32,837 nt of DNA, taken from contig CALVRK010000002.1 in NCBI GenBank assembly GCA_944358565.1, positions 1-32,837 of the forward strand. Reading direction: 5' to 3'. Source of the stretch: an uncultured Bacilli bacterium (GTDB lineage Bacteria > Bacillota_I > Bacilli_A > RF39 > UBA660). The position numbers were made by a program, and so were the translations under genes. This document shows positions 62 to 29,910 of the stretch, one piece after another. Below the pieces are notes generated by a model. That model worked only from the letters and a program-made list of their open reading frames with translations. It searched no databases and was not told the origin of the DNA. Each line of letters opens with the position of its first letter. Position 1 is the stretch's first letter.

Positions 62-150
62 AGTTGAACACAACTTTTTCATAAAAAAAAACTCAATTGA
101 CTTTATTTTCAGAAACCTTTATAATTATATTAAAAGGTAGGGGAAGACGA

Positions 151-663
151 ATGAAAAAAATGAATAGAACACAAAAAAGTTGGATGATTATTGGTCTATG
201 TTTAATAGTGTTATTTATGGCTATTGGTTATGCAAGTTTTGCCACCGATTTAACTATCACTGGATCTTCAAACATTACCAGTACTTGGGATATTAGAATT
301 ACTGATATTAAAGTAAAGTCATTTACTGGTGGAGCAACTAAAGCTGAAGAACCTACAGTTACTAGTAACACCACAGCTACATTTAAAACCAATTTAGTAA
401 GTCCTAGTGATAGCATGACATATACAGTTACTGTTGCTAACGAAGGTAATATCTCAGCTAGATTAGATGATATGACTGTAAGTGACGAAAATAATCCAGC
501 TATATTATTTCAAATAACCGGAATTAATGAAAATGATGTTTTAGGTGAACATTCAACTACCACTTTTGATGTTACTGTAACATATAATCCAGATGTTACA
601 TCACAGCCAGCCGATCTTAACAGTACGCTTGAAGTTGCCTTAGACTATGTTCAAAATAATTAA
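151..663 (+). CDS. Secreted or membrane-anchored protein, paralogue A of the GYAAF-signal family (TasA/camelysin- or CARDB-like)
   Basis: ORF 97..663 trimmed to ATG 151, with RBS aggtagggga at 135-145. Basic N-terminus and hydrophobic helix end in IGYASF, followed by LTITGSSNITSTWDIRI. The NLVSPSDSMTYTVTVANEGNISARL motif is present. The whole protein aligns to the N-terminus of the 14815 gene and to the 32506 partial gene. Confidence 0.6.
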   Translation: MKKMNRTQKSWMIIGLCLIVLFMAIGYASFATDLTITGSSNITSTWDIRITDIKVKSFTGGATKAEEPTVTSNTTATFKTNLVSPSDSMTYTVTVANEGNISARLDDMTVSDENNPAILFQITGINENDVLGEHSTTTFDVTVTYNPDVTSQPADLNSTLEVALDYVQNN

Positions 664-690
664 GCTTCTTTTATAGAAGCTTAATTTTTT
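662..690. terminator. Bidirectional hairpin terminator between paralogue A and clpP
   Basis: aagcttct (662-669) pairs with agaagctt (675-682) and is followed by a T-run. It overlaps the clpP stop codon. Confidence 0.6.
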
Positions 691-3051: not shown

Positions 3052-4062
3052 ATGATAAAAGTCGCAATTAATGGATTTGGTCGTATTGGCCGTTTAGTAT
3101 TTAGAATTATGGAAGAAGATCCTGAAATGGAAGTTGTTGCAATCAATGACTTAACAGACCCAGAACAACTTGCATATTTACTTAAATATGATACATCTCA
3201 TCGAAGATATCTTCCAAATGAAATCACTTATGATGAAGATGGTATAATTGTTAAAGGAAGAAAAATCAAAATTTATGCCGAAATGGATCCAAGTAATTTA
3301 CCTTGGAAAGACTTAGATATCGATGCTGGTTTCGAATGTACCGGTAAATTTACTAGTAAAGATAAAGCTATGGCTCATATTAATGCTGGAGCTAAAAAAG
3401 TTATCATATCAGCGCCTGCTAAAGGTGATTTAAAAACTATTGTCTATGGAGTTAATGAGAATACTTTAGATGGCAGTGAAGAAGTTATAAGCGCGGCTTC
3501 ATGCACGACTAACTGTCTAGCGCCCGTTGCTAATGTTTTAAATAATGCCTTTGGTATTAAAAAAGGTTATATGACTACTGTTCATGCTTATACTAATGAT
3601 CAAACAGTATTAGATGTACCTCATAAAAAAGGTGCTAAATCAAGAAGGGGTAGAGCAGCTGCTGCTAATATGATTCCAACATCTACTGGTGCTGCTAATG
3701 CGTTAGGTAAAGTCATTCCTTCTTTAAATGGAAAATTAGATGGAAGTGCTATTAGAGTTCCAGTAACTACTGGTTCAGTTGTCGATTTAACTTTAGAGCT
3801 AGATAAAAAAGTAACCAAAGAAGAAATTAATGAAGTATTTAAACAAAATCAAAATGAAACCTTAGGTTATACTATAGATCCAATCGTTTCAAGTGATGTT
3901 ATCAGTGAAACCCACGGCGCTATTGTCGATGGCTTATTAACTGATGTTTTAGAAACTGAAACTGGTGATTTAGTTAAAGTTGTTGCTTGGTATGATAACG
4001 AAATGAGTTATTCATCTCAAATGGTTAGAACTGCTAAATATTTATTTAAAGATAATATTTAG
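3052..4062 (+). CDS. gap: Glyceraldehyde-3-phosphate dehydrogenase
   Basis: [13 protein letters not shown] Rossmann motif, catalytic [14 protein letters not shown] near the C-terminus. Confidence 0.95.
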
Positions 4063-4123
4063 TAGTTTTTTCTAATTTGTAAAAAAATATAAAAAGGTTA
4101 TAATATTACTGTGAGGTGATATT

Positions 4124-4970: not shown

Positions 4971-5078
4971 AAATAAAAAATAAATTAATGTAAATAGTAA
5001 TTAATATAAGCTAGGAAACCCTAAAATAAACTTGTTATTATTAAAAAAATAGTATAAAATAAAAGATAGGTGATAAGA

Positions 5079-5447
5079 ATGAAAAATGGGTTTACACTAG
5101 TCGAACTACTAGCTATATTAGCTATATTAGGCGCTATCGTTTTAGTATCTGTTCCAAGCATTGTATCGACAAATAGAAGATCGCAAGAAAGTAATTATGA
5201 ACAGTATACTCAAAATATTGAAAACGCCACTGAAGTATACGTTGAAACACATCCAGATAGATATGCCGAATTAAAATCCACCCCAGGTACAACTGTAACT
5301 ATCAATACCGAAGATTTAGTTGCTAGTGGTGTTATTCAAGGTACTTTAAGAAATCCAAAAACTGATGTTCAGCTAATAAATGAAGCAAGTAGCGTAACAG
5401 TTCAAAATCAAAGTGGCACACTTGTATATACTTATGTTGCCCCATAG
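5079..5447 (+). CDS. Type IV prepilin-like protein (N-terminal cleavage/methylation motif)
   Basis: MKNG|FTLVELLAILAILGAIVL has the classic G/F cleavage site and E at +5. ATG 5079 was chosen over the GTG at 5070. The stop codon overlaps the pgk RBS. Confidence 0.8.
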   Translation: MKNGFTLVELLAILAILGAIVLVSVPSIVSTNRRSQESNYEQYTQNIENATEVYVETHPDRYAELKSTPGTTVTINTEDLVASGVIQGTLRNPKTDVQLINEASSVTVQNQSGTLVYTYVAP

Positions 5448-10442: not shown

Positions 10443-10464
10443 TGTTCTAGAGTAGGTGAAGACA

Positions 10465-10860
10465 ATGAAAAATAAAGGATTTACTTTAACAGAACTATTA
10501 GGAACGATTGTTATTTTAGCCATTATTGCTTTAGTTGCTTTCCCAGCTGTATTGGGACTGCTTAATAATTCTCAAGATGAAACCGATGAAGCTTTACAAA
10601 ACTTCGCTATAGCAGGAGCTAGAAGCTATGTCAATGATAATATGGATTCATTTCCTAAAGCTTTATCAACCTCATCTTCTGTTAGATCTTATGGTAGTGC
10701 TGGAAACCTTACTGTTCAAAAATTAGTTGATGAAGGGTATATTAGTGATACAACTATAGATTCAACTAAAAACTGTGAAATGTTAAATGATTATGTCAAA
10801 GTAACTAGTGATTCTAAAAAGTATCTATTTGAATATGTTGAGGTCGATGGAGGATGTTAA
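10465..10860 (+). CDS. Type IV prepilin-like protein
   Basis: MKNKG|FTLTELLGTIVILAIIALVAF. ATG 10465 lies within track ORF 10456. It has an internal Cys and a C-terminal Cys (..VDGGC). Confidence 0.8.
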   Translation: MKNKGFTLTELLGTIVILAIIALVAFPAVLGLLNNSQDETDEALQNFAIAGARSYVNDNMDSFPKALSTSSSVRSYGSAGNLTVQKLVDEGYISDTTIDSTKNCEMLNDYVKVTSDSKKYLFEYVEVDGGC

Positions 10861-10862
10861 AT

Positions 10863-11336
10863 ATGAAAAAAAATGCATTTACTTTAGTTGAACTTTTGGC
10901 CGTTATTACTATTTTAGGAATTTTAGCTACTATTACTGTACCGATTGTTATAAATGTTTTTAACTCAGCATCAGAAAGTGCTTTTGAAGATGATGCTATG
11001 ACTTTATCTAAAGCCGCTGATAATTATTACACATCACTTACTTTAGAAAGTGATACTAAACTGCCGCTTTTAGTAACTTTTAATAGTGGAAAAGAAACTA
11101 ATAAATATAAAAACAACGTTAATAATGCTTGTGAAACATCTTCAGAAAGATTATTAGAATATAATGGGCAAACTCCTGATAGCGGTAATATATTTATCGA
11201 TAGTAATGGAGAAGTTACTTTAGCTATTTACGATAGACAATCTAAAAAATGCGCTATTAAAAATCCGGGTGATAAAACAGTCACCTTTACAGAAAAATCA
11301 GAAAGTGAATGTAAATTAACAAATAACCCTTGTTAA
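10863..11336 (+). CDS. Type IV prepilin-like protein (Ala at position -1)
   Basis: MKKNA|FTLVELLAVITILGILA. RBS ggagga (10847-10852) fits ATG 10863. Four Cys residues, including the C-terminal residue (..NNPC). Confidence 0.8.
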   Translation: MKKNAFTLVELLAVITILGILATITVPIVINVFNSASESAFEDDAMTLSKAADNYYTSLTLESDTKLPLLVTFNSGKETNKYKNNVNNACETSSERLLEYNGQTPDSGNIFIDSNGEVTLAIYDRQSKKCAIKNPGDKTVTFTEKSESECKLTNNPC

Positions 11337-11469: not shown

Positions 11470-12672
11470 ATGTTAATTCAATTTAAATTTAAAAATCATA
11501 AAAGCTTTTATGATGAAAATGTATTGGATTTAATGGCGACCAGTGAAAAAAGACATATTGAAACTACTGTTAATATTAATGGTAATAAAATTTTACCAGT
11601 AATAGCAATTCATGGAGCCAATGCTTCTGGAAAAAGTGGTATTCTTGAGGCTTTAGAGTTTATGTTTAAAACGATTAAAGAGTCTAGTCACATTGACATT
11701 AATCAAGACCTACAAGTAAATCCATTTGCTTTTTCTACCAAGTCGTTAGTTCAAAACAGTGAATATGAATTTTCTATTTGCTTAGGAGATTATGAATATA
11801 GATATGGATTTGCTATAAATAAAGATGGCTTTGATGAAGAGTGGCTTTATCAAAAAAAATTCGCCGCTAATACTAGAGTATCTCAAAAAATCATCTTTGA
11901 AAGATCTGAAGATAAAGTAGAATTTGGATCATCATATAAAAAATATAAGAAAATTTGGGATTTGTTTGGTAACGATAGTCCAAGTTCTAAAAAAATATTA
12001 ATCTTAAGTAATGTAGCAATTAAAGAAACAGATGGTGTTTTAAGACAAATTTATGATTATGTATGCAAATTCAATTTTAAAATTGAACATTTCTATAATA
12101 AGACGAGTATTGATATTTTAACTAAAGATAGTTCATTATATAATAAATTTCAAAAAATTATTAATGAATTTGATCCTTGTTTATTAGGTATCAAAATTGA
12201 TGAAATAAATTATGAAAATGGTGAAAAAAGATATGTTATTAATGGTATTCATAAAAATTTAGAAAATAACGTAATTCATTCTTTAATTCCTCTGCACAAA
12301 GAATCAGATGGAACAATTAAAATTTTTAATATTATGCCAACAATTTTAAAAAATCTAGAAGAAGGTGGATTATTGTGTATTGATGAATTAGATATAAAAT
12401 TTCACCCATTATTATTTAAAAAAATAGTTAATATGTATAAAAATAGAAAAATTAATAAAAATAATGCCCAATTAATCTATACTGCTCATTCGACATTTAT
12501 GTTTAATAATGCTGATTTAAGAAGAGACCAAATTTATTTAGTAGATAAAGATAAACTTGGAAAATCTCATTTATATTCATTATCTGAATTCAGAAATTTA
12601 AGAGCTGATTCAGATTATGAAAAAAAATATTTAACCGGCCAGTTTGGAGCAATTCCTTTTGAAGATGAGTAG
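11470..12672 (+). CDS. AAA_21/AAA_15-type (ABC-like) ATPase, AbiLi/RloA-like
   Basis: Walker A GANASGKS, Walker B LLCIDELD, and the QLIYTAHS...LRRDQIYLVDKD tail typical of COG1106-type ATPases. Confidence 0.8.
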   Translation: MLIQFKFKNHKSFYDENVLDLMATSEKRHIETTVNINGNKILPVIAIHGANASGKSGILEALEFMFKTIKESSHIDINQDLQVNPFAFSTKSLVQNSEYEFSICLGDYEYRYGFAINKDGFDEEWLYQKKFAANTRVSQKIIFERSEDKVEFGSSYKKYKKIWDLFGNDSPSSKKILILSNVAIKETDGVLRQIYDYVCKFNFKIEHFYNKTSIDILTKDSSLYNKFQKIINEFDPCLLGIKIDEINYENGEKRYVINGIHKNLENNVIHSLIPLHKESDGTIKIFNIMPTILKNLEEGGLLCIDELDIKFHPLLFKKIVNMYKNRKINKNNAQLIYTAHSTFMFNNADLRRDQIYLVDKDKLGKSHLYSLSEFRNLRADSDYEKKYLTGQFGAIPFEDE

Positions 12673-12680
12673 GTGACATT

Positions 12681-13373
12681 ATGGGAAGTGACAACCTATT
12701 TGTTAGAAGAAAAAATGAACGAAAAAAAAGAAAAGAAAACATTTCCAAGCAAAAATCAAGTAACTGGCTTATAGTATGTGAGGGGACTAAAACAGAACCA
12801 AATTATTTCATTGAAGCAGTAAATGAAATTAACAAAAATATTGAAGATAAATATAAATTAAAAGTAAATGTTATAGGAACTGGTAAAAATACAGTATCTT
12901 TAGTAAAATCAGTAGAAGATTTGCAAGTTGAAATAGACAAATATAATAATAGATTAATTCCATACAGTAAAATATTTGTCGTGTTTGATAAAGATGATTT
13001 TAGTGATAAAAATTTTGATGAAGCTATTAATATGTGTCTAACAAATGGATATATTCCATTATGGTCTAACCAGGCTATTGAATTTTGGTTTCTATTACAT
13101 TTCAATTATATTGATGGAAAAATAGATAGAAAAATGTATGCCACCAAAATAAATGAATATTTTAAAAAGAAAGGATTAAAATATACTTATCATAAAAATG
13201 ATTCTAAAATATATTCTAAACTTTGCGAACATGGCTCTTTAAATAAAGCTAAAACAAATGCTAAAAAAATACATTTAACTCATATTAAAGATAAACCATC
13301 GCAGTCAGAAAGCTGTACATCAGTATATAAATTTTTTGAGGCAGTAGACGAAAGATTAGATGAACTAAAATAA
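12681..13373 (+). CDS. RloB-like (Toprim-related) protein, AbiLii-like
   Basis: WLIVCEGTKTEPNYF, IFVVFDKDDF and WSNQAIEFWFLLHF are the hallmark RloB motifs. It lies 8 nt after the ATPase gene. Confidence 0.8.
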   Translation: MGSDNLFVRRKNERKKRKENISKQKSSNWLIVCEGTKTEPNYFIEAVNEINKNIEDKYKLKVNVIGTGKNTVSLVKSVEDLQVEIDKYNNRLIPYSKIFVVFDKDDFSDKNFDEAINMCLTNGYIPLWSNQAIEFWFLLHFNYIDGKIDRKMYATKINEYFKKKGLKYTYHKNDSKIYSKLCEHGSLNKAKTNAKKIHLTHIKDKPSQSESCTSVYKFFEAVDERLDELK

Positions 13374-14814: not shown

Positions 14815-17800
14815 ATGCATAGAAGTAAAAGAAAAAGAAATATTATAATATTTAGTTTAGTGGGCGTATTACTTTGTATGGTAGTAGGATATGCGGCCTT
14901 TCAAACTAGATTAGAAATAAAAGGAACAAGTAAAGTAACTAGTAACTGGGATATTAGAATAACTAATGTCACAGATGGCACTTCAACAGGTCAAGCTGAA
15001 AATGCGATTAAACCATCTTATACAGCATTAACTGGCAACTATGGAGGCAAATCTTTATGATAAAGGTGATGCCATGGAATATGATGTCACTATCGAAAAT
15101 AAAGGAACTTTGGATGCTAAATTAAATGATATTTTAACTAATTTAGAAAATTCAAACAATGAAGCAGTATTAATAACATTCTCGGGTTATACTAAAGGTG
15201 AAATATTAAAATCAGGAGAAAGTAAATTAGTCCATGTAAAAATAGAATATAATCCCGAATATGAAGGTGGGGAAACATCTAGTGAAGTTGAAATAGTTTT
15301 TGATTATATTCAAGATGATAAAAGTGAAGATACTCCAACGACATATTTATTAACTTATGATTATAAGACCAATGGAGGTGAACGAGTTGATAGCGAAGGA
15401 GAATATTTAGCTAGTGGAAGTAATGTAGATTTAACTAATATCGCTTATAAAACAGGTTATAGATTTGTAGGATGGAATACAGATAAAGATGCTAAGGTAG
15501 GAATGACTAGTTATCAAATGAAAGAAGGACCGGCAACTTTATATGCTATTTATTCAAAAGATTTAAAAGTAACTTATGAAAAAGGAAATAATATCCAAAG
15601 TATAGGAAAAATAGAAGATCAATGTACTATTTATAATAATGAAGCATCATGTGAAGTAACTTTGCCATCTATTACACCAAATAATGGGTATAGTGTAGAT
15701 GGATGGTATAATGGTAATAATAAAATAGGGAATTCAAATGATAAATATAAAGTGACAGCTAATATTACTTTAACTTCAAAAGTAAAACAAAATATATATA
15801 CAGTAACATATGACTATAAAACAAACGGTGGAACAAATTCTACTAAAACAACAGATAAAGTGGGTTATGGAGAAAATGTTGATTTAACACCAACAGCTAC
15901 CAAAGAAGGTTGGACATTTGTAGGATGGAATACAGATAAAGATGCGACAACTAAGTTATCATCATTAACTATGGGTAATAGTAATGTTACTTTGTATGCG
16001 ATATATAGAAAAGAAGCTAAACAGGTAACTATAACCTTTAATAAAAATGGAGCTACAAGTCAAACGCCAAATGGAGGTTCAGCTAATAGTAATACTACTA
16101 TAACTCAAAGCTGTACTATTCCAGCAGTTTATAATAATGCTACGCAAGAGAGTAGCTGTAATATAACAAGTCCAACAATTAATGCATCAAGCACAACTCC
16201 AACAGTAGTTGGATATAATACTAGTGCCCAAGCTACTTCTTCATCATGGAATCAAAATACAAGTAAAGCCGTAAGTAGTGATGCAACATATTATGCAATA
16301 ACTAGAAGTGCAACTCAATTAACGGCTTCATTTAATGCTAATGGAGCTACTATTGGTGCAACTAATGCTTCATGTTATAGATATAATGGAGAAGCAAGTT
16401 GTAATGTCACTACTCCAAGTATAACTAGAAGTGGTTTTACTATAACTGGTTGGGGAACAAGTAGCTCGGCGACGACCGCAGAAATAAATGCTAATTCATT
16501 GCTTAATTTAACAGAAAACAAAACATATTATGCAGTAACGAGTAAAGTGGTAACAGTTACATATAATAAGGATTCAACAGTATCAGCTATTGGAAGATCA
16601 GAGGATACTTGTACAATTCAAAATAGTGCAACAAATTGTGGGGTAACTTTACCAAGTATTACAGTTGATGATACTCATATTTTAGATGGATGGTATAAAG
16701 GTTCTACTAAAATTGGAAATCCTAATGCCAAATATAATGTTAGTGACAATATTACTTTGACGGCTAAAGGTAAGGCTGATACTACGGCGCCTACTATTAC
16801 TTTTACTCCAAATAATTATGCTACTTATGTTGCCGATGGTTTAGATGTTGAAGTTACTGTTAAAGATGAAAAACCATTAAGGTTTAGTAATGTAAGTTAT
16901 GGTTGGAGTACTTCAGCAACTACTGCTCCATCAGAATATACTAGTATCGATGTTGATTCTAGAACAAATGAAACATCATTTATTATTCCAGGTGAGTCTA
17001 ATTCAAATATATCAGGCATTTATTATTTATGGTTAAATGGTACTATTTCTGATGCTGCTGGTAATAATTCTAAAACCCCTGCTATTAGTGGTGCTTTCTA
17101 TTTTGATAATGAAAAACCTACTGTTAGTATTACATCTACAAAAACAGGAAATGATGTTAGTGTAAAAGCAATTGCAAATGACGGTTATAGTGGTATTAAT
17201 AAATATTATTTTAGTAAAGATGGTGGTCAAAATTATATAGAAACTACTAATGATAATTATACTTTTATCGATTTAGAGCCAGGTAATTATATAATAACTG
17301 TTTATGTTACTGATAAGGCAGGTAACCAATCAGAGTTGGCTACGAAAACTGAAGGAATAGGTGCAGAAGATTTCTGTAAAGGTAATGGTATTGATGATTT
17401 TGGTGATTGTTTAATTGCAACTGAGGCTAAAGAGTCTAATATCAATACAGCCAAATCAATTATTAAAGGAAAAGGTACAACTGATGTTACAAAAGCTAGT
17501 CCAAGTGTGGTATATAAAGAAGTGCATTCAGCATCTACTACTACTGTAACTAGTAGTAGATCAGAGATATATGTTGGAACCGGTTATACATTTGATTCAT
17601 CGAAAGGTATGTATACTTTATCTAACTGGCAATTGCGAGATACGGAAAGCATTGATTTTAAATCTAGTAATTATTATGTTACTGCTAATTTTGATATAAA
17701 TTCTACAATATCAGGCTGGACAAGTTCTGGTACAATTTATAAAATTGTTAATATGAAAACAACAACTGCGGCATCTGGTCAAAAAACTTATACATATACA

Positions 17801-18982
17801 GTTTATAAGTATAATATTGCTCCAATATCATACAATACTGCAGATGTGGGAATGTTTTCTGATGTAGATGATCAAGGTGATTCGTTTTATTATCGCGGTT
17901 CTATCAGTAATAATTATGTTAAATTTGCCAATAAGATATGGCGAGTTATTAGGGTAAATGGTGACGGTAGTGTTCGAATGATCTATGATGGTACTTCAGC
18001 ACATAGTAATGGTGAAAAGAGTGATAATAGACAAGTCGGAACATCAAGATTTAATTCGTATTATGCCGATAACACATATGCGGGATATATGTATGGAAAT
18101 CCGGATGATTTTGGAGCAACGAAACCAAGAGATACATTTTTATGGGAAAAAAGTGATATTCAACCTGATACAACGTATTATTATGGGACAAGCTATACCT
18201 TGTCGGGCCGGTCTTATAAATTAGCTGGGACAATTACTTCTGGTAAATATAATTCTAGTAGAGTTGGAAAATATACTTGTTTTAGCACTTCTAAAACAGG
18301 CACTTGTCAAAGATTGGCTTTAATTAAGGAATATAAATCTGAAACTACTGCTTTGTCTCAAGTTTTGGCATATGGAAGTCAAAATAAAACTGCAGCGAGA
18401 AGTAATGTTACAGATAGTAGTATAAAAACGTATTTAGATGATTGGTATGTTGATAACTTTACTACAGCGCAGCGTAATAAATTATCTAAAAGTGCTGTTT
18501 TCTGTAATTCACGTGTTGTTTATCCTAACTTAACAGAGCCAGATAATTATAATAATTATGCCTATGGATTAAATCCAACAAGTTATTCTATTGGAAAAAT
18601 AAGAAGTTTATCTACGTATGGTGCGACATATAGCTGTGAAAATATTGATAGTTTTAGTGTAAATACGACATATGGTAATGGTGATTTGACTTATCCGATA
18701 GGTCTAATTAGTTTAGATGAAGCATTAAGATCCGGTTTAACTGCGGGTGTTTCAAATACGCTTAATTATTTGTATACTGGTAATGGTTATTGGACTATGA
18801 CACCTGCTGGTATAGGTTCATCTGCATATATGACAATTATTCATATAGGCATAAGTGGCGCTCTAGGTAATTATCAATCTAGTATTTCTTCTGTAGGTGT
18901 AAAACCAGTTATTAATATAACCACTTCGTCAATTAGCTATTCTGGAAATGGTACACAAGATGATCCTTATGTATTATCATAG
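14815..18982 (+). pseudogene. Giant mosaic surface protein (about 1388 aa if repaired), paralogue B of the GYAAF-signal family, split by a +1 frameshift near 15034-15035
   Basis: Track ORFs 14815..15060 and 15041..18982 overlap. Removing one G of the GG at 15034-15035 gives ..SYTALTATMEANLYDKGDAMEYDVTIENKGTLDA. That matches ..TTATFKTNLVSPSDSMTYTVTVANEG in paralogue A and ..LSATFNANLTTPGSSVTYDVTV in paralogue C. RBS aagaggtgg precedes ATG 14815. Confidence 0.7.
15344..16771 (+). repeat. Six tandem repeats of about 75 aa (Listeria-Bacteroides/Flg_new-like) inside the giant gene
   Basis: Units recur as Y.(V/L)TYDYKTNGG...GY.FVGWNTDKDA...LYAIY and a Cys-pair variant C..N..ASC.VTLPSIT..G..(V/L)DGWY. 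The 30-nt stretch atttgtaggatggaatacagataaagatgc occurs twice (about 15470 and 15910). Confidence 0.6.
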
Positions 18983-19025: not shown

Positions 19026-19415
19026 ATGAAAAAAACAAGTAAAATAGTTTTATTCTTTGTTTTGACACTTATAATAATTTTAATAATAGTTTTAATTTTA
19101 TTATTTGGAAGTAAAAAAAATGAAAAGGTTGAAATTGATACAGTTGAAGATTTATATAAGCAAGTTGTTGACAAAAACAAGAAAAATGAAAATTATCATT
19201 ATAAGTTATATGGGTATACTTATGACGAAAATCAAAATGTAGAAATGTCTATTATGCAGGCATATGTAGAAAATAATAAAGTGTATGACATGGACGGGAA
19301 AGAGATTGGCGATTATTCTGATGATACAATAGATGAAATGTTAGATAAAGCTACTACTAAAATATATTATTTTACATTTAAAAATGGGAAATATGTTTTA
19401 AAATCATCAAAATAA
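19026..19415 (+). CDS. Small N-terminally membrane-anchored protein, unknown function
   Basis: 129-aa ORF with one TM helix (IVLFFVLTLIIILIIVLILLF), 43 nt after the giant gene. Confidence 0.55.
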   Translation: MKKTSKIVLFFVLTLIIILIIVLILLFGSKKNEKVEIDTVEDLYKQVVDKNKKNENYHYKLYGYTYDENQNVEMSIMQAYVENNKVYDMDGKEIGDYSDDTIDEMLDKATTKIYYFTFKNGKYVLKSSK

Positions 19416-19656
19416 ATTTTTGAAAGTTTGGCACTTCCGTGTTAACTTTTTAAGTGCTATATGTATGTTTTTAAGAAAGATTAATAAGCTAGTGTTTATG
19501 CTGGCTTTTTTCTTTACCACAATTTCCCATATTTCTATCAAAATTTTACCATAATAATTTAGTATGATTATTACAGAGCAAAGATGAAAAGCTCTTAGAA
19601 AGGTTGTGATAGATGATATTAAAAAATAGTGTTATACTATAAATGAGGCGATAATA

Positions 19657-20310
19657 ATGTATAAAATTTGTTTAGTTGAAGATGAAAAAAATTTAAATGA
19701 TCTGATCAAGTCTTATTTAGAAAGAGCAGGTTATGAGGTAGTTCAATATTATAATGGAACAGATGCTTTAAATCACGTAGGTGATAAAACCGATTTATGG
19801 ATATTAGATATAATGTTAGGCGACGAAGTAAGTGGCTATGACATTATAAAAAAAATAAGAGAAAGTAAAGATGTTCCAGTAATATTTACATCTGCTAGAG
19901 ATCAAGACTTAGATAAAATTATAGGCTTAGAGTTAGGAAGTGATGATTACGTAACTAAGCCATATTCACCAAAAGAACTAGTGTTAAGAGTTAATAATAT
20001 TATAAAAAGAACTTATATGGGGCAAACCCAAAAGATAATGTATGATACTTATGAAATTGATGTTGATAAAAGACTAGTTAAAGATGAATCTAAAGAACTT
20101 TCTCTCACTACTTTGGAATTTGACCTACTATTAATGCTAGTCCAAAATAAAAATAAATCATTTTCAAGAAGCCATATATTGGAGACTGTTTGGGGTGAAA
20201 ACTATTTCGGTAGTGATAGGGTAGTAGACGACTTAGTCAGAAGATTAAGAAAGAAAATGCCTAAACTAAGATTAAACACCATTTATGGATACGGGTATAG
20301 ATTATCATGA
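19657..20310 (+). CDS. OmpR-family response regulator
   Basis: Receiver domain (LWILDIMLGD) plus a winged-helix output domain (LTTLEFDLLLMLV..YGYGYRL). Confidence 0.9.
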   Translation: MYKICLVEDEKNLNDLIKSYLERAGYEVVQYYNGTDALNHVGDKTDLWILDIMLGDEVSGYDIIKKIRESKDVPVIFTSARDQDLDKIIGLELGSDDYVTKPYSPKELVLRVNNIIKRTYMGQTQKIMYDTYEIDVDKRLVKDESKELSLTTLEFDLLLMLVQNKNKSFSRSHILETVWGENYFGSDRVVDDLVRRLRKKMPKLRLNTIYGYGYRLS

Positions 20311-21566
20311 ATTTAAGACATAATTTATACCGTCAAATTTTAACTATCGTTTTAGTCATGTTTGCTCTCATATATATAAGTTTTGCGATTATACTCCCAA
20401 AAGTCTTAATACCGTTTTATGAAAAGAACATCTATCTTTACTTGCAAACTCCACTAGATATCATAAGTGATGACTCGATTGCCACTGAAATAGATAGTAG
20501 TGTAGCGTATATTTATGAAAAAGATGATGATATTACAGTTTCTAGTAACTTAGGTGAAATAATAGATCTTAAAGCTAATCAAATTTTAGAAAACATAAAC
20601 GGGAAATATGGTAAATTCACTTACCAGAATAAAACTTACTACTATAATACACTTAATGACGTCTTTGGTTATAAAATCGCAATAACTAGTGATAACTATA
20701 TTCGTCAAATGCGGGCTGATATTTTAGAAGCTTTATTCCCAGTTCTCTTGATCACTTTGTTACTAATGCTTGCTATAGTAGCTTGGTGGAGTCAGTCCCT
20801 CGCCCAAAAAATTCGTCATCTAAAAGAAAAAGTAGATAATCTAGATAATGATAACTACGTCGACAAATATAATTATAAAGTAGATGATGAATTAAAAGTC
20901 CTATCTAAAGCCATCGATGAAATGAAGCTTACCCTACATAAACAAGAAGAATATAAAAACAAAATGTATCAAAATATTTCTCATGATTTTAAAACCCCTC
21001 TCACCGTTATAAAATCATATATTGAAGCTATTGAAGATGGTGTTGAAGATGAAAAAGATGGACTAAAAATTATAAAACAAGAAATTAAAAAATTAGAAAT
21101 TAAAGTACACTCCTTACTATATTTAAATAAATTAACGTATTTTAAAGATATGGAAAATTATAAAAGTGGACAGACTAATATAGTTGATTTACTTGAAACT
21201 TCCGTATCTAAGTTTAAAGTGGCTAGGCCAGATATTAAATGGCAAATCGATATTTTAGATAAAAAAACGGATTTTAAAGGAACTACAGAAATGTGGGAAG
21301 CTATTATTGATAATATCTTAAGTAATTTTATAAGATATGCAAAAAAAGAAGTAAAAATAACGGTAAAAAATAGACGTATTACTTTCTATAATGATGGACC
21401 AAATATCGATAAAAACATTTTAGACGACATGTTTACTCCTTACAAAAAAGGTATCAACGGTCAGTTCGGATTGGGGTTATCTATTGTTAAGCAAACCCTA
21501 TCCCTACTAGGGTATGAAGTAACCGCTAAAAACGAACGTACTGGGATATCCTTTATAATAAAATAA
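20307..21566 (+). CDS. Sensor histidine kinase
   Basis: Two TM helices, H-box SHDFKTPLT, N-box IIDNILSNFIRYA, G-box GLGLSIVK. An ATGA overlap joins it to the regulator gene. Confidence 0.9.
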   Translation: MNLRHNLYRQILTIVLVMFALIYISFAIILPKVLIPFYEKNIYLYLQTPLDIISDDSIATEIDSSVAYIYEKDDDITVSSNLGEIIDLKANQILENINGKYGKFTYQNKTYYYNTLNDVFGYKIAITSDNYIRQMRADILEALFPVLLITLLLMLAIVAWWSQSLAQKIRHLKEKVDNLDNDNYVDKYNYKVDDELKVLSKAIDEMKLTLHKQEEYKNKMYQNISHDFKTPLTVIKSYIEAIEDGVEDEKDGLKIIKQEIKKLEIKVHSLLYLNKLTYFKDMENYKSGQTNIVDLLETSVSKFKVARPDIKWQIDILDKKTDFKGTTEMWEAIIDNILSNFIRYAKKEVKITVKNRRITFYNDGPNIDKNILDDMFTPYKKGINGQFGLGLSIVKQTLSLLGYEVTAKNERTGISFIIK

Positions 21567-23494: not shown

Positions 23495-26374
23495 ATGTAC
23501 GCACCACTTAATATAAAAACATGTAATTCACTTTTAAAAAGCATGATTAATATTGATAATTTAGTTAAAGTAGCTAAAGAAAACAATATCAAAGCTTTAA
23601 CTATTACCGACGATAACATGTATGGTGTCATAGAGTTTTATAGTGCCTGCACCAAAAACGGTATTAAACCAATTATTGGTTTAGAAATATCCTTGCCAGA
23701 AAAAATAATCTTTTATGCGATGAATTATGAAGGTTATAAAAACCTCATGAAACTAACAACCCTTAAATCAGAAAAAAGGTTAACTACAACTGATTTATCA
23801 AAATATGCATCTGATTTAATTTGTCTAGTTCCTTATGAAAGCCGAAATGTTTATAATGAATTAAAAAAATTATATAAATATATTTTTATTACTTATAAAA
23901 ATGATGAACAAAAAACCAAAATTAAAGCTACTAATTCTTTATATATGAATGAAATTTTATGTATAAATAAAGAAGATGAAAAGTATTTAAAATATCTTAA
24001 AGCTATTAAAGACGGAAAAAAAATTAATGAAATAGATGAAAATTTTACTAATGTTAGTTTATTTCCTTTAGAAACATCTAAAAATAATGAGCTTTTAGTA
24101 AGTTTATGTGATGTTCAAATTAAAACTCATCAAGATCTACTTCCAATATTTGATAAAAATAAAGATGCCTATGAAGAATTAAAAAAAGCCTGCATTGAAG
24201 GGATGAAAAATATATTTGGTGCGTCTGCACCCAAAAAATATGCAGTTAGACTAAAGCATGAATTAGAAATTATAAATAAAATGGGATTTTGTGATTACTT
24301 TTTAATCGTTGCCGATTACATCAAATTTGCGAAAAACCATGGAATCTTAGTTGGACCAGGTAGGGGAAGCGCGGCTGGCTCTTTAGTTGCTTACTGCCTA
24401 AACATTACAACTATTGATCCTTTAAAATATAATTTACTTTTTGAAAGATTTTTGAATCCCGAAAGAATAACTATGCCCGATATTGATGTCGATTTTGAAG
24501 ATACAAGAAGAGAAGAAGTTATCGAATACTGTATGCATAAATATGGTATAAAAAGAGTTGCTTTAATCATTACTTTTGGTACCTTAGCGGCTAAACAAGC
24601 TGTCAAAGATATTTGCCGCACCTTAGATATTGACCAAAAAAAAGTCGATAACTTAAGTAAACTTTTGGATTCTAAACTTTCTTTAAAACAAAACTATCAA
24701 AATCCAAAAATAAAAAGATATTTAGAGATGAATCCAGAATTCAAACCAGTTTATAAAATCGCTTCCAAATTTGAAGGTTTAAAAAGACATACTTCTTTGC
24801 ACGCTGCTGGAATTGTCATGTCTAAATATGACCTCGATGATTACATTCCTTTAGATAAAACTCATGATGAATTTTATGCAACTGAATATGATAAAGATCA
24901 TCTAGAAGAATTAGGCTTATTAAAAATGGATTTCTTAGGTTTAAAAAACCTAACATTAATTACTAATATTTTAAAAGAAATATCGGATTTAGAGTTTGAT
25001 ACTATTCCTGAAGATGACACTAAAGCTTTAAATATTTTTACTACTGTCAATACCGTTGGTATTTTCCAGTTTGAATCAGAAGGTATGAAAAAATTCTTGC
25101 AAAAATTTAAACCAACTACTTTTGAAGATATCGTTTCCGCACTTGCTCTTTTCCGTCCAGGACCGATGAAAAACATCGATTCATATATTAGAAGAAAAAA
25201 AGGCTTAGAAAAGATTGACTATTTCCATGAAGATCTAGAGCCAATTTTAAAACCAACTTACGGAATAATTGTCTATCAAGAGCAGATTATGCAAATAGCG
25301 AGCATTATGGCCGGTTATACTTTAGCTGAAGCTGATTTACTAAGAAGAGCTATGAGTAAAAAAAGTGAAAGCATTCTTTTAAAAGAAAAAGATAGATTTA
25401 TTAAAGGTAGCACACAAAAAGGTTATGACAAGGATTTAGCTATAAAAGTTTATAATATGATTTTTAAATTTGCTGACTATGGTTTTAATCGTTCACATTC
25501 TGTCGCTTATGCCATGATATCTTACCGTATGGCTTATCTTAAGGCTCATTATCCTAAATTATTTATGAAACATTTATTATCTAGTGCGATTAATAGTGAA
25601 ATCAAAACGAAAGAATATATTTATGAATGTGCAAAAAATAACATTTCTATTCGTAAACCAGATATTAACCTAAGTATGGATACCTATGAAACTATAAATA
25701 GCAGTATTATTTTTCCTTTAACTAACATTAAAAATGTTGGTGTGAATGCCGCTAGAGCCATATTGAAAGAAAGAGAAAAAGGAAAATTTCATGATATCTT
25801 TGACTTTACTGCTCGTTGTTATGGCGGACCAGTAAATTCTAAAACTTTAGAAAATTTAATTTATGCTGGAGCTTTTGATTCTTTTGGCTTTAATAAAAAT
25901 ACTTTAATTCAAAATCTCGATATTATTATAAATTATAGTGAAATAGGTTCTTACGTGTCCGATGACACATTTAAGCCAGAGCTTGAACAATTTAAAGAAT
26001 TATCTAAAAAAGAATTGATGCAAAAAGAACTTGAAGTATTTGGCTTTTATTTAAGTAATCATCCAATCACTGAATATAAAAAACAAAATCCTAAAGCTAT
26101 CGAATTAAAGGAGTTAAGTAGTTTCTTTGATAGGATGGTTGAAGCTATTGTCTATGTTGATAAAACTAAAGAAATAGATACTAAAAATAAAGATAAAATG
26201 ATGTTTATTACGGGCAGCGATGAATTATCGCAAGTTGATATTGTCGTTTTTCCAAGAGTTTATCAAATAATGCCGGCAATTACTTCAGGTGATATTTTAA
26301 AAATAACCGGCAAAGTTGAAAAAAGATATGATCAATATCAAATAGTTGCGAATAACGTAATAAAGTTAAATTGA
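23495..26374 (+). CDS. dnaE: DNA polymerase III alpha subunit, DnaE type
   Basis: N-terminal PHP domain, PDIDVDF catalytic motif and an OB-fold near the C-terminus. RBS aggaggg is present. At 959 aa it is rather compact. Confidence 0.9.
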   Translation: MYAPLNIKTCNSLLKSMINIDNLVKVAKENNIKALTITDDNMYGVIEFYSACTKNGIKPIIGLEISLPEKIIFYAMNYEGYKNLMKLTTLKSEKRLTTTDLSKYASDLICLVPYESRNVYNELKKLYKYIFITYKNDEQKTKIKATNSLYMNEILCINKEDEKYLKYLKAIKDGKKINEIDENFTNVSLFPLETSKNNELLVSLCDVQIKTHQDLLPIFDKNKDAYEELKKACIEGMKNIFGASAPKKYAVRLKHELEIINKMGFCDYFLIVADYIKFAKNHGILVGPGRGSAAGSLVAYCLNITTIDPLKYNLLFERFLNPERITMPDIDVDFEDTRREEVIEYCMHKYGIKRVALIITFGTLAAKQAVKDICRTLDIDQKKVDNLSKLLDSKLSLKQNYQNPKIKRYLEMNPEFKPVYKIASKFEGLKRHTSLHAAGIVMSKYDLDDYIPLDKTHDEFYATEYDKDHLEELGLLKMDFLGLKNLTLITNILKEISDLEFDTIPEDDTKALNIFTTVNTVGIFQFESEGMKKFLQKFKPTTFEDIVSALALFRPGPMKNIDSYIRRKKGLEKIDYFHEDLEPILKPTYGIIVYQEQIMQIASIMAGYTLAEADLLRRAMSKKSESILLKEKDRFIKGSTQKGYDKDLAIKVYNMIFKFADYGFNRSHSVAYAMISYRMAYLKAHYPKLFMKHLLSSAINSEIKTKEYIYECAKNNISIRKPDINLSMDTYETINSSIIFPLTNIKNVGVNAARAILKEREKGKFHDIFDFTARCYGGPVNSKTLENLIYAGAFDSFGFNKNTLIQNLDIIINYSEIGSYVSDDTFKPELEQFKELSKKELMQKELEVFGFYLSNHPITEYKKQNPKAIELKELSSFFDRMVEAIVYVDKTKEIDTKNKDKMMFITGSDELSQVDIVVFPRVYQIMPAITSGDILKITGKVEKRYDQYQIVANNVIKLN

Positions 26375-26431
26375 TTATATTTATTTTTCTATTAAAATAT
26401 GTTATTCTAATAATAGAGAGGTGAATAAAAG

Positions 26432-27136
26432 ATGAAAGGGGAAAAAAGTAAAATAATTTTAGTATATGTCTTAATGCTTTTAGTTATAGGATTAATTGTC
26501 GCTTTAACACTTTTTGTTTTAAATAGTAATAAAAAGAAAGAAAATCATAGTTCATCTACTAATAACGCACCGAAAGTTGATGTCAATCCATTTCCAAATA
26601 TATCACAGGAGTGTACTTTTAATCTTACATTAGATGAGTATAACGCTTTGACTGGACCTAGATGTAAAAATGGTTATAGTCGTTATAACGTAAATGGACT
26701 TTCACTTGGTGGAAAGACTATGAATGTTTCAGTTATTTATACTGATCAAGATGGTAACAAAGCGGGTATATATGTTAATGATAGACGTGCAACTACGGTA
26801 GTTAATAATGTTACAAATATTAAGTTTGGTATTTTTGACGATAAGTTATTTATATTAGATAATAATAACGAAACTAATGTTTTAGTGTTTGCTAATGATT
26901 CTACAAAAGTATACGATTTAAAAGAAGCATTAGAATCTTCTAAAATAACTGATCCAACACTTAATCAAGTTTTAAGCTCAACTACTATCAATCCAAATAG
27001 CTTTAATTTTACTGATGCGAATTTCACATTCCAAGCTGGAATAACAAGAGATAATCAAACTTTAGCTGGATCTACATATCAAGTAACTTTTAAAGGTAAC
27101 GAATTTTCTAAGCCAGAATTTTTAACTCAAAACTAA
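26432..27136 (+). CDS. N-terminally membrane-anchored extracellular protein, unknown function
   Basis: 234-aa ORF with RBS agagagg, a single TM helix and an Asn/Thr-rich ectodomain. Confidence 0.55.
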   Translation: MKGEKSKIILVYVLMLLVIGLIVALTLFVLNSNKKKENHSSSTNNAPKVDVNPFPNISQECTFNLTLDEYNALTGPRCKNGYSRYNVNGLSLGGKTMNVSVIYTDQDGNKAGIYVNDRRATTVVNNVTNIKFGIFDDKLFILDNNNETNVLVFANDSTKVYDLKEALESSKITDPTLNQVLSSTTINPNSFNFTDANFTFQAGITRDNQTLAGSTYQVTFKGNEFSKPEFLTQN

Positions 27137-27163
27137 AAGAATAGCTAACTAAGGCTATTCTTT
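27137..27163. terminator. Bidirectional hairpin between the 26432 gene and sspI
   Basis: aagaatagc (27137-27145) pairs with gctattctt (27154-27162). Confidence 0.5.
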
Positions 27164-27351
27164 AAAATATCTAAAATTCTATTTTTTTCATCATCTGAAC
27201 ATTTATTCCATACTATTTTAAAAAACACTCCTAATCCCGGTAAAGTAATTTCATCTTTATCATTAAAAGATGAAACAATTGACTCTTTAATATCATCTAT
27301 AGATGCTCCTTTAAAATTATTCATAATATGATTTTTAATACTTATATTCAT
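27145..27351 (-). CDS. sspI: Small acid-soluble spore protein I-like
   Basis: MNISIKNHIMNN...ITLPGLGVFFKIVWNKCSDDEKNRILDILKNSL resembles SspI (LPGLGVLFE.IW...E.E..IL). The second ATG (27351) fits the RBS aaaggaa better than 27360. Confidence 0.65.
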   Translation of the reverse strand: MNISIKNHIMNNFKGASIDDIKESIVSSFNDKDEITLPGLGVFFKIVWNKCSDDEKNRILDILKNSLS

Positions 27352-27373
27352 TATCACCATTTCCTTTCAAATT

Positions 27374-27403
27374 TATTATGTGTTTAAATTATATTAATTA
27401 TGC
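27374..27403 (-). promoter_or_regulatory. Candidate forespore (SigG/SigF-type) promoter of sspI
   Basis: Minus strand reads GCATA, 18-nt spacer, CATAATA, which matches the GnATR / CAtnnTA consensus. Confidence 0.3.
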
Positions 27404-27436
27404 AAACACATTTTAGTTATAAGCATATGATATAAT

Positions 27437-27658
27437 ATGAGAAGTTTAAATGAATTAAAAATTAATGAAGAAAGTACTATTGTATCGGTAAACACTGATA
27501 CAAATATTAAAAGGAGACTTATGGATATTGGTTTTGTCAAAGGTGAAAAAGTAAAATTACTATTAAAAAATTTTGGTGATAATATGCGAGCTTATAAAAT
27601 TAAAAATACTGTTATGGCTTTAAGAGTAAGTGATACTAAAAATATTTTAATTAAATGA
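27437..27658 (+). CDS. feoA: FeoA-domain protein (no feoB in the window)
   Basis: 73 aa, SH3-like FeoA pattern L.EL..GE...I..V......RRLMDIGF.KGEKV. Confidence 0.7.
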   Translation: MRSLNELKINEESTIVSVNTDTNIKRRLMDIGFVKGEKVKLLLKNFGDNMRAYKIKNTVMALRVSDTKNILIK

Positions 27659-27679
27659 AAGAAGAATACTTCTTTTTTT
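27658..27679 (+). terminator. Terminator after feoA
   Basis: aaagaag pairs with cttcttt, loop aata, followed by a T-run. Confidence 0.55.
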
Positions 27680-27735
27680 CTTTACAAGAACAATTGTTTG
27701 TGATATATTGAATACATCAAAGAAAAGGTGAGAAA

Positions 27736-28509
27736 ATGAAAATTAAAAACATCAAAAAAGTTGGAACTAAATATAAGATAATTTTAGATAATAATGAAGT
27801 GATAACAACTAGTGATCATGTAATTATAAATCATAATCTTTTATACGATAAAAAAATAAATCAAAAAGAGTTAAATAAAATAAAAGAAGATACTAAATAT
27901 TATGAAAACTATAATAAAGTTTTAAAAATGATCAACCGTAAAATTCGTAGTGAACACGAAATAAGAAAAACTTTAAATAAAAATGAGGTTTCTCAAACCG
28001 ACACTGATAAAATAGTAAATACTTTAAAAGAAATAGGACTTATAAATGATGAAGTCTTTGCCGAAAGCTATACTAATGACAAAATAAACTTAACTTTAGA
28101 AGGACCATATAAAATAAGAAAGGAATTAGAAGACCACGAAATTGATAGTACATATATTGAAAAAGCCTTATCTAATTTCACCCAAGATTTAATCGATAGT
28201 AAATTAGATAAAATAATTAGTAAAAAAATCAAAAGTAATACCAAAGACACAACTTATATTTTTAAACAAAAAACCTCACTATACTTGTCAAATCTTGGTT
28301 ATAGTAGGGAAGATATAGCTAATCATTTGGAAAATATTAAACTTGATAATAGTAAATTAGAGAAAGAAATGGAAAAAATATATAATAAATTAAAAACCAA
28401 ATATGAAGGTTATGCTTTATATAGTAAATTAAAACAAAAACTATATTCCAAAGGTTTTACTTCTGAAGAGATAAATAATTTCATAGAAAAAAACAGCTCA
28501 TTAATTTGA
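27736..28509 (+). CDS. recX: RecX-family regulatory protein
   Basis: Repeated three-helix RecX-like units (RSEHEIRKTL.., DKIVNTLKEIGLINDEVFAESY, LYSKGFTSEEINNFI). Confidence 0.7.
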   Translation: MKIKNIKKVGTKYKIILDNNEVITTSDHVIINHNLLYDKKINQKELNKIKEDTKYYENYNKVLKMINRKIRSEHEIRKTLNKNEVSQTDTDKIVNTLKEIGLINDEVFAESYTNDKINLTLEGPYKIRKELEDHEIDSTYIEKALSNFTQDLIDSKLDKIISKKIKSNTKDTTYIFKQKTSLYLSNLGYSREDIANHLENIKLDNSKLEKEMEKIYNKLKTKYEGYALYSKLKQKLYSKGFTSEEINNFIEKNSSLI

Positions 28510-29499: not shown

Positions 29500-29657
29500 G
29501 TCAACTCTTCCTTTCACATGTATGCTTTCATACATATTAAATAATATCAGATATTCCTTTAAATTTCAATAATTTTATTTATTTTTACCCATAAGTAATC
29601 ACACAAACCAAATTTTTCCATAAAATAATGTGAAAGGTAAAAAGGAGGATGATTTAT

Positions 29658-29741
29658 ATGTGTAATACCGGAACAAGTTCAGCAGCAATCGTATTAGTAT
29701 TATTTATTCTTTTAATAATCATACTTGGAGCTTATCTATAA
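29658..29741 (+). CDS. YjcZ-like tiny transmembrane (sporulation) peptide, 27 aa
   Basis: Hand translation gives MCNTGTSSAAIVLVLFILLIIILGAYL*. RBS aaaggagg lies 8 nt upstream. The (A)IVLVLFILLII.GA.. core is typical of the tiny_TM_bacill/YjcZ family. Confidence 0.55.
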   Translation: MCNTGTSSAAIVLVLFILLIIILGAYL

Positions 29742-29760
29742 GCCCTAGAAAGGAGTAATT

Positions 29761-29880: not shown

Positions 29881-29885
29881 TAAGG

Positions 29886-29910
29886 GAAAAGTCCATGGAC
29901 TTTTCTTTTA
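29886..29910 (+). terminator. Terminator after the tiny-peptide pair
   Basis: gaaaagtc pairs with gacttttc around a catg-type loop, followed by tttta. Confidence 0.6.

Follow-up and report, generated by a model that had tools for sequence, protein, structure and literature searches.

Fibre systems with dedicated signal peptidases

Several surface fibres of bacteria and archaea, namely those of TasA, BsaA of Clostridium perfringens, archaeal AbpA, tafi, and AbpX, are assembled by insertion of the N-terminal strand of one subunit into the next (PMC9674648, PMC11580942, PMC9245690, PMC12337348, 10.64898/2026.01.04.697558). TasA is cleaved by the signal peptidase SipW at TWA/AF (the slash marks the cut), and the phenylalanine at P2′ makes this site a poor substrate for the bacterial-type peptidase LepB and TasA dependent on SipW (PMC10269814). 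AbpX-type loci of archaea and Bacillota encode AbpX-like minor subunits, tip proteins, a distinct signal peptidase I with ten transmembrane helices, and a DUF5305 accessory protein, and they are reported to sit beside diguanylate cyclases; two transmembrane helices are typical of prokaryotic signal peptidase I (10.64898/2026.01.04.697558). For the AbpX-like proteins, an isoelectric point (pI) of ~4 is reported, along with an aromatic residue at position 2 of the mature chain and an acidic one at position 4; monomer predictions leave their N-terminal extension unstructured (10.64898/2026.01.04.697558). In the tafi system, the deletion of tafD abolishes fibres and leaves TafA unprocessed, and TafG is a DUF5305 protein, the role of which was not tested there (PMC11821415, PMC12337348). 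Here we describe three paralogous genes, A, B, and C, in a 32.8-kb stretch of DNA from an uncultured gut Bacilli bacterium (contig CALVRK010000002.1, positions 1–32,837; 28.6% guanine and cytosine), which we call the window. We propose that their products build TasA/AbpX-like surface fibres and carry adhesins on them, by means of a dedicated peptidase and a donor strand, and we put the probability of this reading at about 0.6.

Of the systems described so far, the AbpX-type locus comes closest. Like AbpX-type loci, the loci that encode relatives of A, B, and C combine a signal peptidase I of about ten helices with a DUF5305 accessory protein that has two transmembrane helices, and they hold, at or near the locus, several small paralogous subunits and larger tip- or cargo-bearing proteins. 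The extended cluster here also includes a GGDEF protein. The subunits resemble AbpX in mature size (~140–165 residues), in a pI of ~4, and in an N-terminal extension of ~16–19 residues that is unstructured in monomer predictions and has an aromatic residue at mature position 2. The junctions read AIG..YA/QW in AbpX and AIGYA/AF in the family. The family differs from AbpX in being hugely expanded (at least 9–17 copies per 1.3–1.5-Mb genome) and dispersed, in the fusion of its module to diverse C-terminal adhesin domains, and in its hosts, which are uncultured gut Bacilli. Among the fibre systems that use a dedicated signal peptidase and DUF5305, which were described only recently, this one is best seen as a highly expanded variant that carries cargo.

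The TasA/SipW/TapA system of Bacillus subtilis and the BsaA/SipW system of C. perfringens share with this family the linkage of an archaeal-type (S26B) signal peptidase to its substrates, a small-aromatic-A/A-F junction with phenylalanine at P2′, an NL.PGD...N.G hairpin in a beta-sandwich, and a donor strand proposed at the N-terminus. The presence of type IV pilin genes nearby recalls the type IV pilus-assisted secretion of SipW-dependent BsaA and BsaC (PMC11580942). The body of the family is ~90 residues shorter than that of TasA. The peptidase linked to the family has 380 residues and is polytopic, whereas SipW is an enzyme of roughly 190 residues with two transmembrane helices, and, to our knowledge, the tapA-sipW-tasA operon of B. 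subtilis contains no DUF5305 gene. The tafi system (TafA, TafC, TafE, TafD, and TafG; PMC11821415, PMC12337348) also pairs a dedicated multi-transmembrane signal peptidase with DUF5305 and has several subunit paralogues; its fibres assemble by strand donation, as those of the family may. However, the tafi subunits have Tat signals, whereas those of the family are of the Sec type without a twin arginine; the catalytic domain of TafD is N-terminal and is accompanied by four transmembrane helices; and no sequence similarity between tafi and the family was detected.

A large protein family with a conserved N-terminal module

The three genes and the parts of A, which is the simplest of them, are located as follows.

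151–663, plus strand: paralogue A, an intact stand-alone subunit of 170 residues that consists of the module only (sequence, profile match, model)
151–234, plus strand: predicted signal peptide of A, residues 1–28, with a basic start, a ~20-residue helix, and M-A-I-G-Y-A as c-region (sequence, AlphaFold2 helix at residues 6–25, conserved positions −5, −3, −2, and −1)
235–309, plus strand: conserved amphipathic N-terminal segment of mature A (SFATDLTITGSSNITSTWDIRITDI), candidate donor strand (conservation; coil with a low predicted local distance difference test score, pLDDT, in both AlphaFold2 models)
310–660, plus strand: beta-sandwich body of A, with the TATFKTNLVSPSDSMTYTVTVANEGN hairpin motif and the C-terminal LDYVQ strand (AlphaFold2 models, sequence; the first strand starts at residue 48, just upstream)
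14815–18982, plus strand: paralogue B, the family module and a cargo of ~1,200 residues, with a +1 frameshift inside (sequence, profile matches)
32506–32837, plus strand: paralogue C, truncated after 110 codons by the window end; a 166-residue gene in relatives (sequence, profile match, synteny)

A, B, and C each have a signal helix at the N-terminus, the near-invariant block M-x-[IV]-G-Y-A/A-F...L.I.G...I.S.W, and a beta-sandwich that carries a PGD...Y.V.V.N.G motif. A profile made of database homologues, among which neither B nor C was included, matched the N-terminal open reading frame of B with an E-value of 1.5e-23, the second reading frame of B with 8.1e-19, and C with 2.3e-33; it matched none of the other reading frames of the window. 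The similarity among A, B, and C is far greater than expected by chance. An exhaustive search with the family profile, run against 1.84 billion cluster representatives (clusters at 50% identity), gave 9,532 proteins at E ≤ 1e-3, of which 763 reach E ≤ 1e-30. In nearly all of the 9,532, the match covers the first 170 residues; their total length ranges from 160 to more than 1,000 residues. Therefore, the family is defined by an N-terminal module, which is followed by a variable cargo. Among the 80 top-ranking loci that two narrow patterns retrieved, at least eight lie on one 1.54-Mb chromosome and at least 14 (~17 members) in one metagenome-assembled genome.

The C-terminal ~1,200 residues of B contain five Flg_new (Listeria-Bacteroides/InlB-B) repeats and a Y_Y_Y/OmpL47-like domain according to Pfam and NCBIfam scans. 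Elsewhere in the family, the cargo comprises leucine-rich repeat (LRR)/DUF285, DUF6273, Flg_new, and ALK-type glycine-rich domains. Scans of A, B, and C with the same two databases found no model that covers the family, and none for TasA, CARDB, or the SipW signal; the members are therefore currently annotated as hypothetical proteins. The family is thus large and without annotation, and it occurs in uncultured low-GC gut Bacilli (CAG:822/Candidatus Coprosoma). The mature subunits have a pI of 4.05–4.4.

The block around the signal junction is the most conserved part of the protein across 145 cluster representatives. Upstream of the junction, methionine at −5 is present in 139 of them, glycine at −3 in 133, tyrosine at −2 in 132, and alanine at −1 in 139. 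Alanine follows at +1 in 114, and position +2 is phenylalanine in 106, leucine in 30, and tyrosine in five, which makes 141 with one of these three residues. Further downstream, the conserved residues are L+6 (145), I+8 (138), G+10 (139), I+14 (123), S+16 (127), and W+18 (128). A hydrophobic residue occupies alternate positions over ~20 residues past the junction, and the conservation reaches position +25. Among eight paralogues, the mean identity is 54% in the signal, 54% in the post-signal strand, and 32% in the body. A preliminary description of this DNA, made from the sequence alone, had located the three genes and quoted their peptides correctly; its impressions of unusually strong conservation across the signal end, of a large genomic family, and of an adhesin-like cargo in one member all agree with these results.

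Linkage to a polytopic signal peptidase and DUF5305

The L010 operon, in which a distant homologue 36% identical to A is located, encodes a 183-residue family member, a 382-residue protein, a DUF5305 protein, and a 538-residue family member. The first 245 residues of the 382-residue protein form a polytopic membrane domain, and the C-terminal 130 constitute an archaeal/SipW-type signal peptidase I: residues 248–375 match TIGR02228 with 99.8 bits (cutoff 51.85) and the SipW model with 79 bits, which is under the 190-bit equivalog cutoff of that model. The DUF5305 protein matches PF17231 with 55 bits (cutoff 29) and has two transmembrane segments. The trio of small family member, peptidase, and DUF5305 is also present in L057, L066, L068, L072, and L093, the peptidases of which share only 29% identity with that of L010. 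In every peptidase locus examined (L010, L057, L066, L068, L072, L093, and L094–L102), the S26B peptidase directly follows family members, and DUF5305 follows the peptidase in all full loci. The linkage of the module to the polytopic S26B peptidase and DUF5305 is tight and evolutionarily conserved.

The peptidase contains the motifs SGSMSPTF, HR, and GDHNN..D. Bacterial-type signal peptidases carry their catalytic lysine at the position of HR, and this motif would fit a peptidase of the Ser-His type of the endoplasmic reticulum and archaea. A crude Kyte-Doolittle scan of the 380-residue peptidases found ten hydrophobic segments, the ninth of which is followed by the catalytic SGSM. A search with the peptidase returned 546 homologues, and nearly all of the 120 matches listed have 379–380 residues. 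The record CCY46436.1, ‘peptidase S26B signal peptidase’ of Firmicutes bacterium CAG:822, shares a 90% cluster with the peptidase of the close relatives, and the enzyme is present in the species of the window, CAG:822. One member of that cluster (P0387) has 568 residues instead of 380, perhaps because it is fused to the product of an adjacent gene or because the gene was called wrongly. The DUF5305 fragment of L041, used as a query, returned only fragments on short contigs.

Contigs L094–L097 are 89% identical to positions 24738–32782 of the window and continue beyond its end. They carry dnaE, sspI, feoA, recX, a peptidyl-prolyl isomerase gene, and argS in the same order as the window, and then a 166-residue orthologue of C, three small paralogues, a 380-residue peptidase, and DUF5305. 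The contigs of the CCY46436.1 cluster have six small paralogues between argS and the peptidase, and, across the contigs of close relatives, the C orthologue and three to five further small paralogues precede the peptidase. According to this synteny, the peptidase gene therefore lies ~3.5–4.5 kb beyond the end of the window, with C as the opening gene of the array in between.

The junction combines small residues at −3 and −1 with an aromatic or large hydrophobic residue at P2′ (+2). Judging from the conserved gene linkage, the peptidase very likely cuts at G-Y-A/A-F. The dedicated SipW-type processing step anticipated in the preliminary description is supported by the placement of the peptidase genes and by the presence of the peptidase in CAG:822, and the resemblance of GYA/AF to the TWA/AF of TasA extends to the aromatic residue at P2′ of both. 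Retention of the helix as a signal anchor is a distinctly unlikely alternative. The members would then be type II membrane proteins, in which the juxtamembrane segment and an immunoglobulin-like (Ig) domain serve as a stalk for the adhesin cargo, and the peptidase would act on few members or on other proteins. Near-invariant small residues at −3 and −1 with an aromatic residue at +2 constitute a classical SipW-type cleavage site, the linkage of small member and peptidase is kept across lineages that are ~30% identical, and it is hard to see what module-only proteins such as A would do as bare stalks. Signal-anchor topology would nevertheless accommodate the continuous helix that AlphaFold2 models over residues 6–25 and the dispersal of most members far from the peptidase; it would also supply a means of retention, which is needed because A and B have no LPXTG or other anchor.

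It is highly improbable that the family consists of type IV pilin-like or pseudopilin proteins cut by a prepilin peptidase. Three genuine N_methyl genes are present in the window, and a pilin-like gene lies directly 3′ of DUF5305 in L057, L066, L068, and L072 (~3.1–3.7 kb). However, the family has no G/FTLxE motif, A, B, and C do not match N_methyl (PF07963), which the three pilin-like genes do, and the linked peptidase is of the S26B type, not a PilD-type aspartic peptidase.

Fold and kinship of the module

The AlphaFold2 model of full-length A (pLDDT 89) contains a helix at residues 6–25, coil at residues 26–47, and an eight-stranded beta-sandwich at residues 48–168. In a second model, calculated for mature A (pLDDT 88), residues 1–19 are again low-confidence coil. 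The sandwich itself has a pLDDT above 90. Residues 29–47 of the segment SFATDLTITGSSNITSTWDIRITDI are coil in both models, and its tail, residues 48–53, starts the first modelled strand. Therefore, the most conserved segment of the protein is located outside the fold of the subunit itself.

A Foldseek search of the PDB with the full-length model gave the TasA fibre (8aur_A) as the best match, which is weak (E 3.5e-3, TM-score 0.38), followed by still weaker matches to the donor-strand pilins CfaB, the PapG pilin domain, the Sulfolobus 0406 thread, and the FimD tip complex. The fold comparison proposed in the preliminary description thus returned a likeness to TasA with this model, which was lost with the model of the mature domain. 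Because the match was not reproduced, we do not count the fold as evidence for homology to TasA. A sequence search of the PDB with the family profile retrieved nothing relevant.

Neither Peptidase_M73 (PF12389) nor TIGR04088, the model of the SipW-cognate signal peptide, matched A, B, or C at E ≤ 1. When 36 family members were scanned individually, nine gave sub-threshold matches to Peptidase_M73 (best E 5e-4; the one examined covers only the PGD hairpin, residues 77–106 against profile positions 50–79). Four matched TIGR04090, the BsaA family (best 17 bits, cutoff 60), and one matched TIGR04089 (22 bits against a cutoff of 60, colinear from residues 61–169 to positions 63–168 of 179). The family differs from TasA and BsaA in falling below the thresholds of Peptidase_M73, TIGR04088, and TIGR04090, and the membership of the TasA/camelysin family that had been suggested for the three paralogues was not borne out by these models, the Peptidase_M73 match examined being confined to the PGD...N.G hairpin. 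The most frequent sub-threshold matches of the body in the same 36 proteins were to DUF7507 (28), DUF11 (24–30), HYDIN/VesB Ig domains (22), and CARDB (8), and choice-of-anchor D was also among the best. A itself reaches 16.6 bits with DUF7507 (PF24346; cutoff 27) and an E-value of 0.21 with DUF11 (PF01345). For the CARDB-like alternative that had also been raised, one homologue scores 22.7 bits with CARDB (PF07705), exactly the gathering score, and the other matches are below threshold.

Sequence comparison with AbpX of Pyrodictium abyssi (sequence from the supplement of the preprint 10.64898/2026.01.04.697558) gave 38.6% in hhalign, with an E-value of 3.2e-4 over 90 colinear columns, which extend from the signal helix via AIG..YA/QW to the EN.GTI.A hairpin. 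A larger hidden Markov model of the family scored 12.0 bits against TasA and 10.2 bits against AbpX. None of 2,000 full shuffles reached either score, and two of 2,000 shuffles in which the signal was kept reached that of AbpX. BLASTP of the family against AbpX found no match, and the likeness to AbpX is thus not significant at the level of sequence. A correspondence of donor-strand spacing between AbpX and the family (aromatic 2, leucine 6, aliphatic 8, small 10) was considered and rejected, as the 26-residue segments scored no better than shuffles. Judged by sequence, membership of the TasA superfamily is plausible but unproven, and a CARDB-like reading of the body is equally tenable, being about as well supported as the TasA reading.

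Several results weigh against the fibre reading. In Foldseek, the mature-domain model retrieved generic sandwiches (adaptin ear, white spot syndrome virus proteins VP28 and VP37, a FixG-related protein), and TasA was outside the top 50. The sub-threshold matches to DUF11, DUF7507, and CARDB are equal to or better than those of the TasA type, and hhalign of the family against TasA, the sequence of which was checked against 8aur, gave 7.7%. Taken alone, the 26-residue donor-strand segments of AbpX and TasA do not outscore shuffles. At mature position 4, where AbpX-like proteins have a conserved acidic residue, the family has threonine, serine, or glutamine; therefore, the calcium trigger of AbpX may not apply. 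The window itself contains no peptidase gene, and the link of the peptidase to this exact strain relies on synteny with contigs of 89% identity and on the protein recorded for CAG:822. Neither A nor B is adjacent to the peptidase gene, and most family members are dispersed.

These results bear on the possibility that the proteins are cleaved by the peptidase without forming fibres. They would then be secreted or wall-associated monomeric proteins with CARDB/DUF11-like Ig domains, and the block after the cut would be a recognition or sorting determinant for the peptidase or DUF5305, for example for surface retention. The best sub-threshold body matches (DUF7507, DUF11, CARDB, choice-of-anchor D), the generic sandwiches found by Foldseek, and the lack of significant similarity of the donor-strand region to AbpX or TasA all speak for such proteins, and the PGD...Y.V.V.N.G..A hairpin is common to the family and the Ig-like domains. 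We consider this explanation unlikely, since recognition by a signal peptidase does not normally account for conservation that reaches 25 residues past the cut in a strict alternating hydrophobic pattern. Moreover, the N-terminal segment is outside the fold in both models, and arrays of small subunits with a polytopic signal peptidase and DUF5305 are the locus type of the donor-strand fibres AbpX and tafi. The CARDB, DUF11, and DUF7507 domains differ from the family in being internal repeats without a fixed N-terminal signal, a post-signal extension, or linkage to a dedicated peptidase.

Proposed mechanism of fibre assembly

Based on the conserved module, the gene linkage, and the models of A, a pathway to surface fibres can be proposed. 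As the sequences show, each protein begins with a basic stretch, to which a ~20-residue helix and M-x-[IV]-G-Y-A as c-region are joined. Once the protein has been exported by Sec, this signal would be cut at G-Y-A/A-F by the archaeal/SipW-type (S26B, Ser-His) signal peptidase, which carries about nine extra membrane helices and presumably works with the DUF5305 accessory protein. The freed N-terminus, A-F-x-x-x-L-x-I-x-G-T-x-x-I-x-S-x-W, would be an amphipathic strand outside the subunit's own fold, and it may enter the beta-sandwich of a neighbouring subunit by donor-strand complementation, as in the fibres of TasA, BsaA, and AbpX. This N-terminus may well be the donor strand that links the subunits into fibres. 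The module-only proteins, A as well as C and the rest of its array, could well form the shaft. Similarly, the cargo-bearing members (B here; those with LRR/DUF285, DUF6273, or ALK-type glycine-rich domains elsewhere) may well be adhesins displayed on the fibre or at its tip.

The paralogues and their genomic surroundings

Three further features of A and B are listed here.

97–125, plus strand: promoter-like site of A, TTGACT, 17 nucleotides, TATAAT, with 11 of 12 consensus matches (consensus match only)
658–686, plus strand: terminator-like hairpin 3′ of A, common to the convergent clpP (sequence)
15034–15035, plus strand: GG dinucleotide, one extra G of which breaks the frame of B (a one-G deletion restores the reading frame)

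The signal peptide of A is predicted to be cleaved after A28. A lipoprotein reading of A was rejected, as A has no lipobox (leucine precedes Cys17). For the family as a whole, this reading fails on the eight mature subunits examined, which contain zero cysteines; the cysteine of the signal helix is the commonest residue at its position in only about half of the representatives. A and the repaired B were likewise rejected as sortase substrates, having neither an [LIV]PX[TSA]G motif nor a C-terminal hydrophobic segment.

The predicted cleavage of B is after residue 27 (nucleotide 14895). The frame of B breaks into a reading frame at 14815–15060 (81 residues) and one at 15041–18982 in the +1 frame (1313 residues). 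B had been described as one gene, and its start at 14815 and its motifs are real; the crossing of frames caused by the extra G had been overlooked, and the second motif quoted for B (ATMEANLYDKGDAMEYDVTI) is in the other frame, 15041–18982. The removal of one G from the GG dinucleotide gives a single stop-free reading frame of 1388 residues. The truncated product of 81 residues is also recorded in two other metagenome assemblies, in which both contigs end less than 60 nucleotides from the site. For this reason, a simple read error seems a less likely source of the extra G than heterogeneity among strains or a problem of assembly at this point. The exact 1313-residue product of the second reading frame was looked up in sequence records and not found. 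Directly 3′ of B (19026–21566) are genes for a small N-terminally anchored protein with a weak DUF4179 match and for an OmpR-type response regulator and histidine kinase; this pair may have a regulatory link to B, or its position may be a coincidence.

The last 55 nucleotides of C (32783–32837) no longer align with the orthologues, and the translation changes from the expected KNGGTLDAKL... to TGTQVNNTVTPNDGKHSY, which could reflect a contig-end artefact or recombination between paralogues. In the array of L098 (6397–10000), each small paralogue has its own terminator and a repeated promoter and leader (AAATATGATAAT...AGAGTAGGGAAACTACTTAGAATAT...GGGAGG); an Rfam search of these leaders found no known family. 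The last gene of that array is N-terminally truncated by an in-frame stop, which follows MESKHKNALIGPL.

A conserved extended cluster continues past DUF5305 in L094/L095 (12309–21143) and L040/L041 (1–10495). Its order is a Zn-ribbon/DUF975 membrane protein, a U32 peptidase on the opposite strand, a 346-residue pilin-like protein, a 155-residue membrane protein, the GGDEF protein, a BrkB-like protein, LtaS, a 215-residue protein, and another family member of 167 residues. The last of these follows the same cluster in another CAG:822 scaffold (L040).

The housekeeping genes in the window (clpP, gap, pgk, tpi, spo0A, dus, dnaE, sspI, recX, argS) are those of a spore-forming Firmicute. The DNA of the window is 96–97% identical to scaffold HF990843.1 (scf16) of Firmicutes bacterium CAG:822 and 94% identical to a Candidatus Coprosoma metagenome-assembled genome; the complete chromosomes of related assemblies are 1.3–1.5 Mb long. 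Three type IV pilin-like genes with an N_methyl match and a KGFTLVELL motif (5070–5447, 10456–10860, and 10854–11336) are scattered among the housekeeping genes. Between the pilin genes and dus is a defence-island-type insert (11470–13373), a gene pair of AAA_21 (AbiEii-like ATPase) and RloB-like type. The relative L001 has a different gene after spo0A (564 residues; faint DUF6273/AAA_5), and the spot of the AAA_21/RloB insert is thus variable. Relative to window positions 4050–4074, just 3′ of gap, scaffold HF990843.1 of CAG:822 contains an insertion of ~890 bp (L012 13901–14792). A 72-residue reading frame at 30175–30393 is a remnant of a type III toxin-antitoxin system, since its match to the ToxN toxin is restricted to the central part (profile positions 64–124 of 159). 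About 550 bp around it (29952–30499) have no counterpart in the relatives L094–L098, and no ToxI-like repeat array was found.

Implications for uncultured gut Bacilli

A broader possibility, which we put forward tentatively, is that reduced-genome gut Bacilli (CAG:822/Coprosoma and relatives) use one polytopic peptidase/DUF5305 machine and a shared donor-strand module to build heteropolymeric fibres, into which a dozen or more dispersed paralogues with different adhesin domains can be plugged. If this is true, it would represent a sortase-independent, mix-and-match display of adhesins, and the module would belong to a strand-complementing branch too diverged from TasA and AbpX for current models. 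The family offers a sequence-defined set of substrates, with the G-Y-A/A-F junction, a small mature subunit of 142 residues, and a single peptidase/DUF5305 pair. It could be used to probe the roles of polytopic SipW-type peptidases and DUF5305, and of modular cargo on donor-strand fibres. The family accounts for on the order of 1% of the genes in the 1.3–1.5-Mb genomes of these uncultured gut Bacilli and carries most of their recognisable adhesin domains. It therefore probably defines how these common uncultured commensals attach to their hosts or to other microbes.

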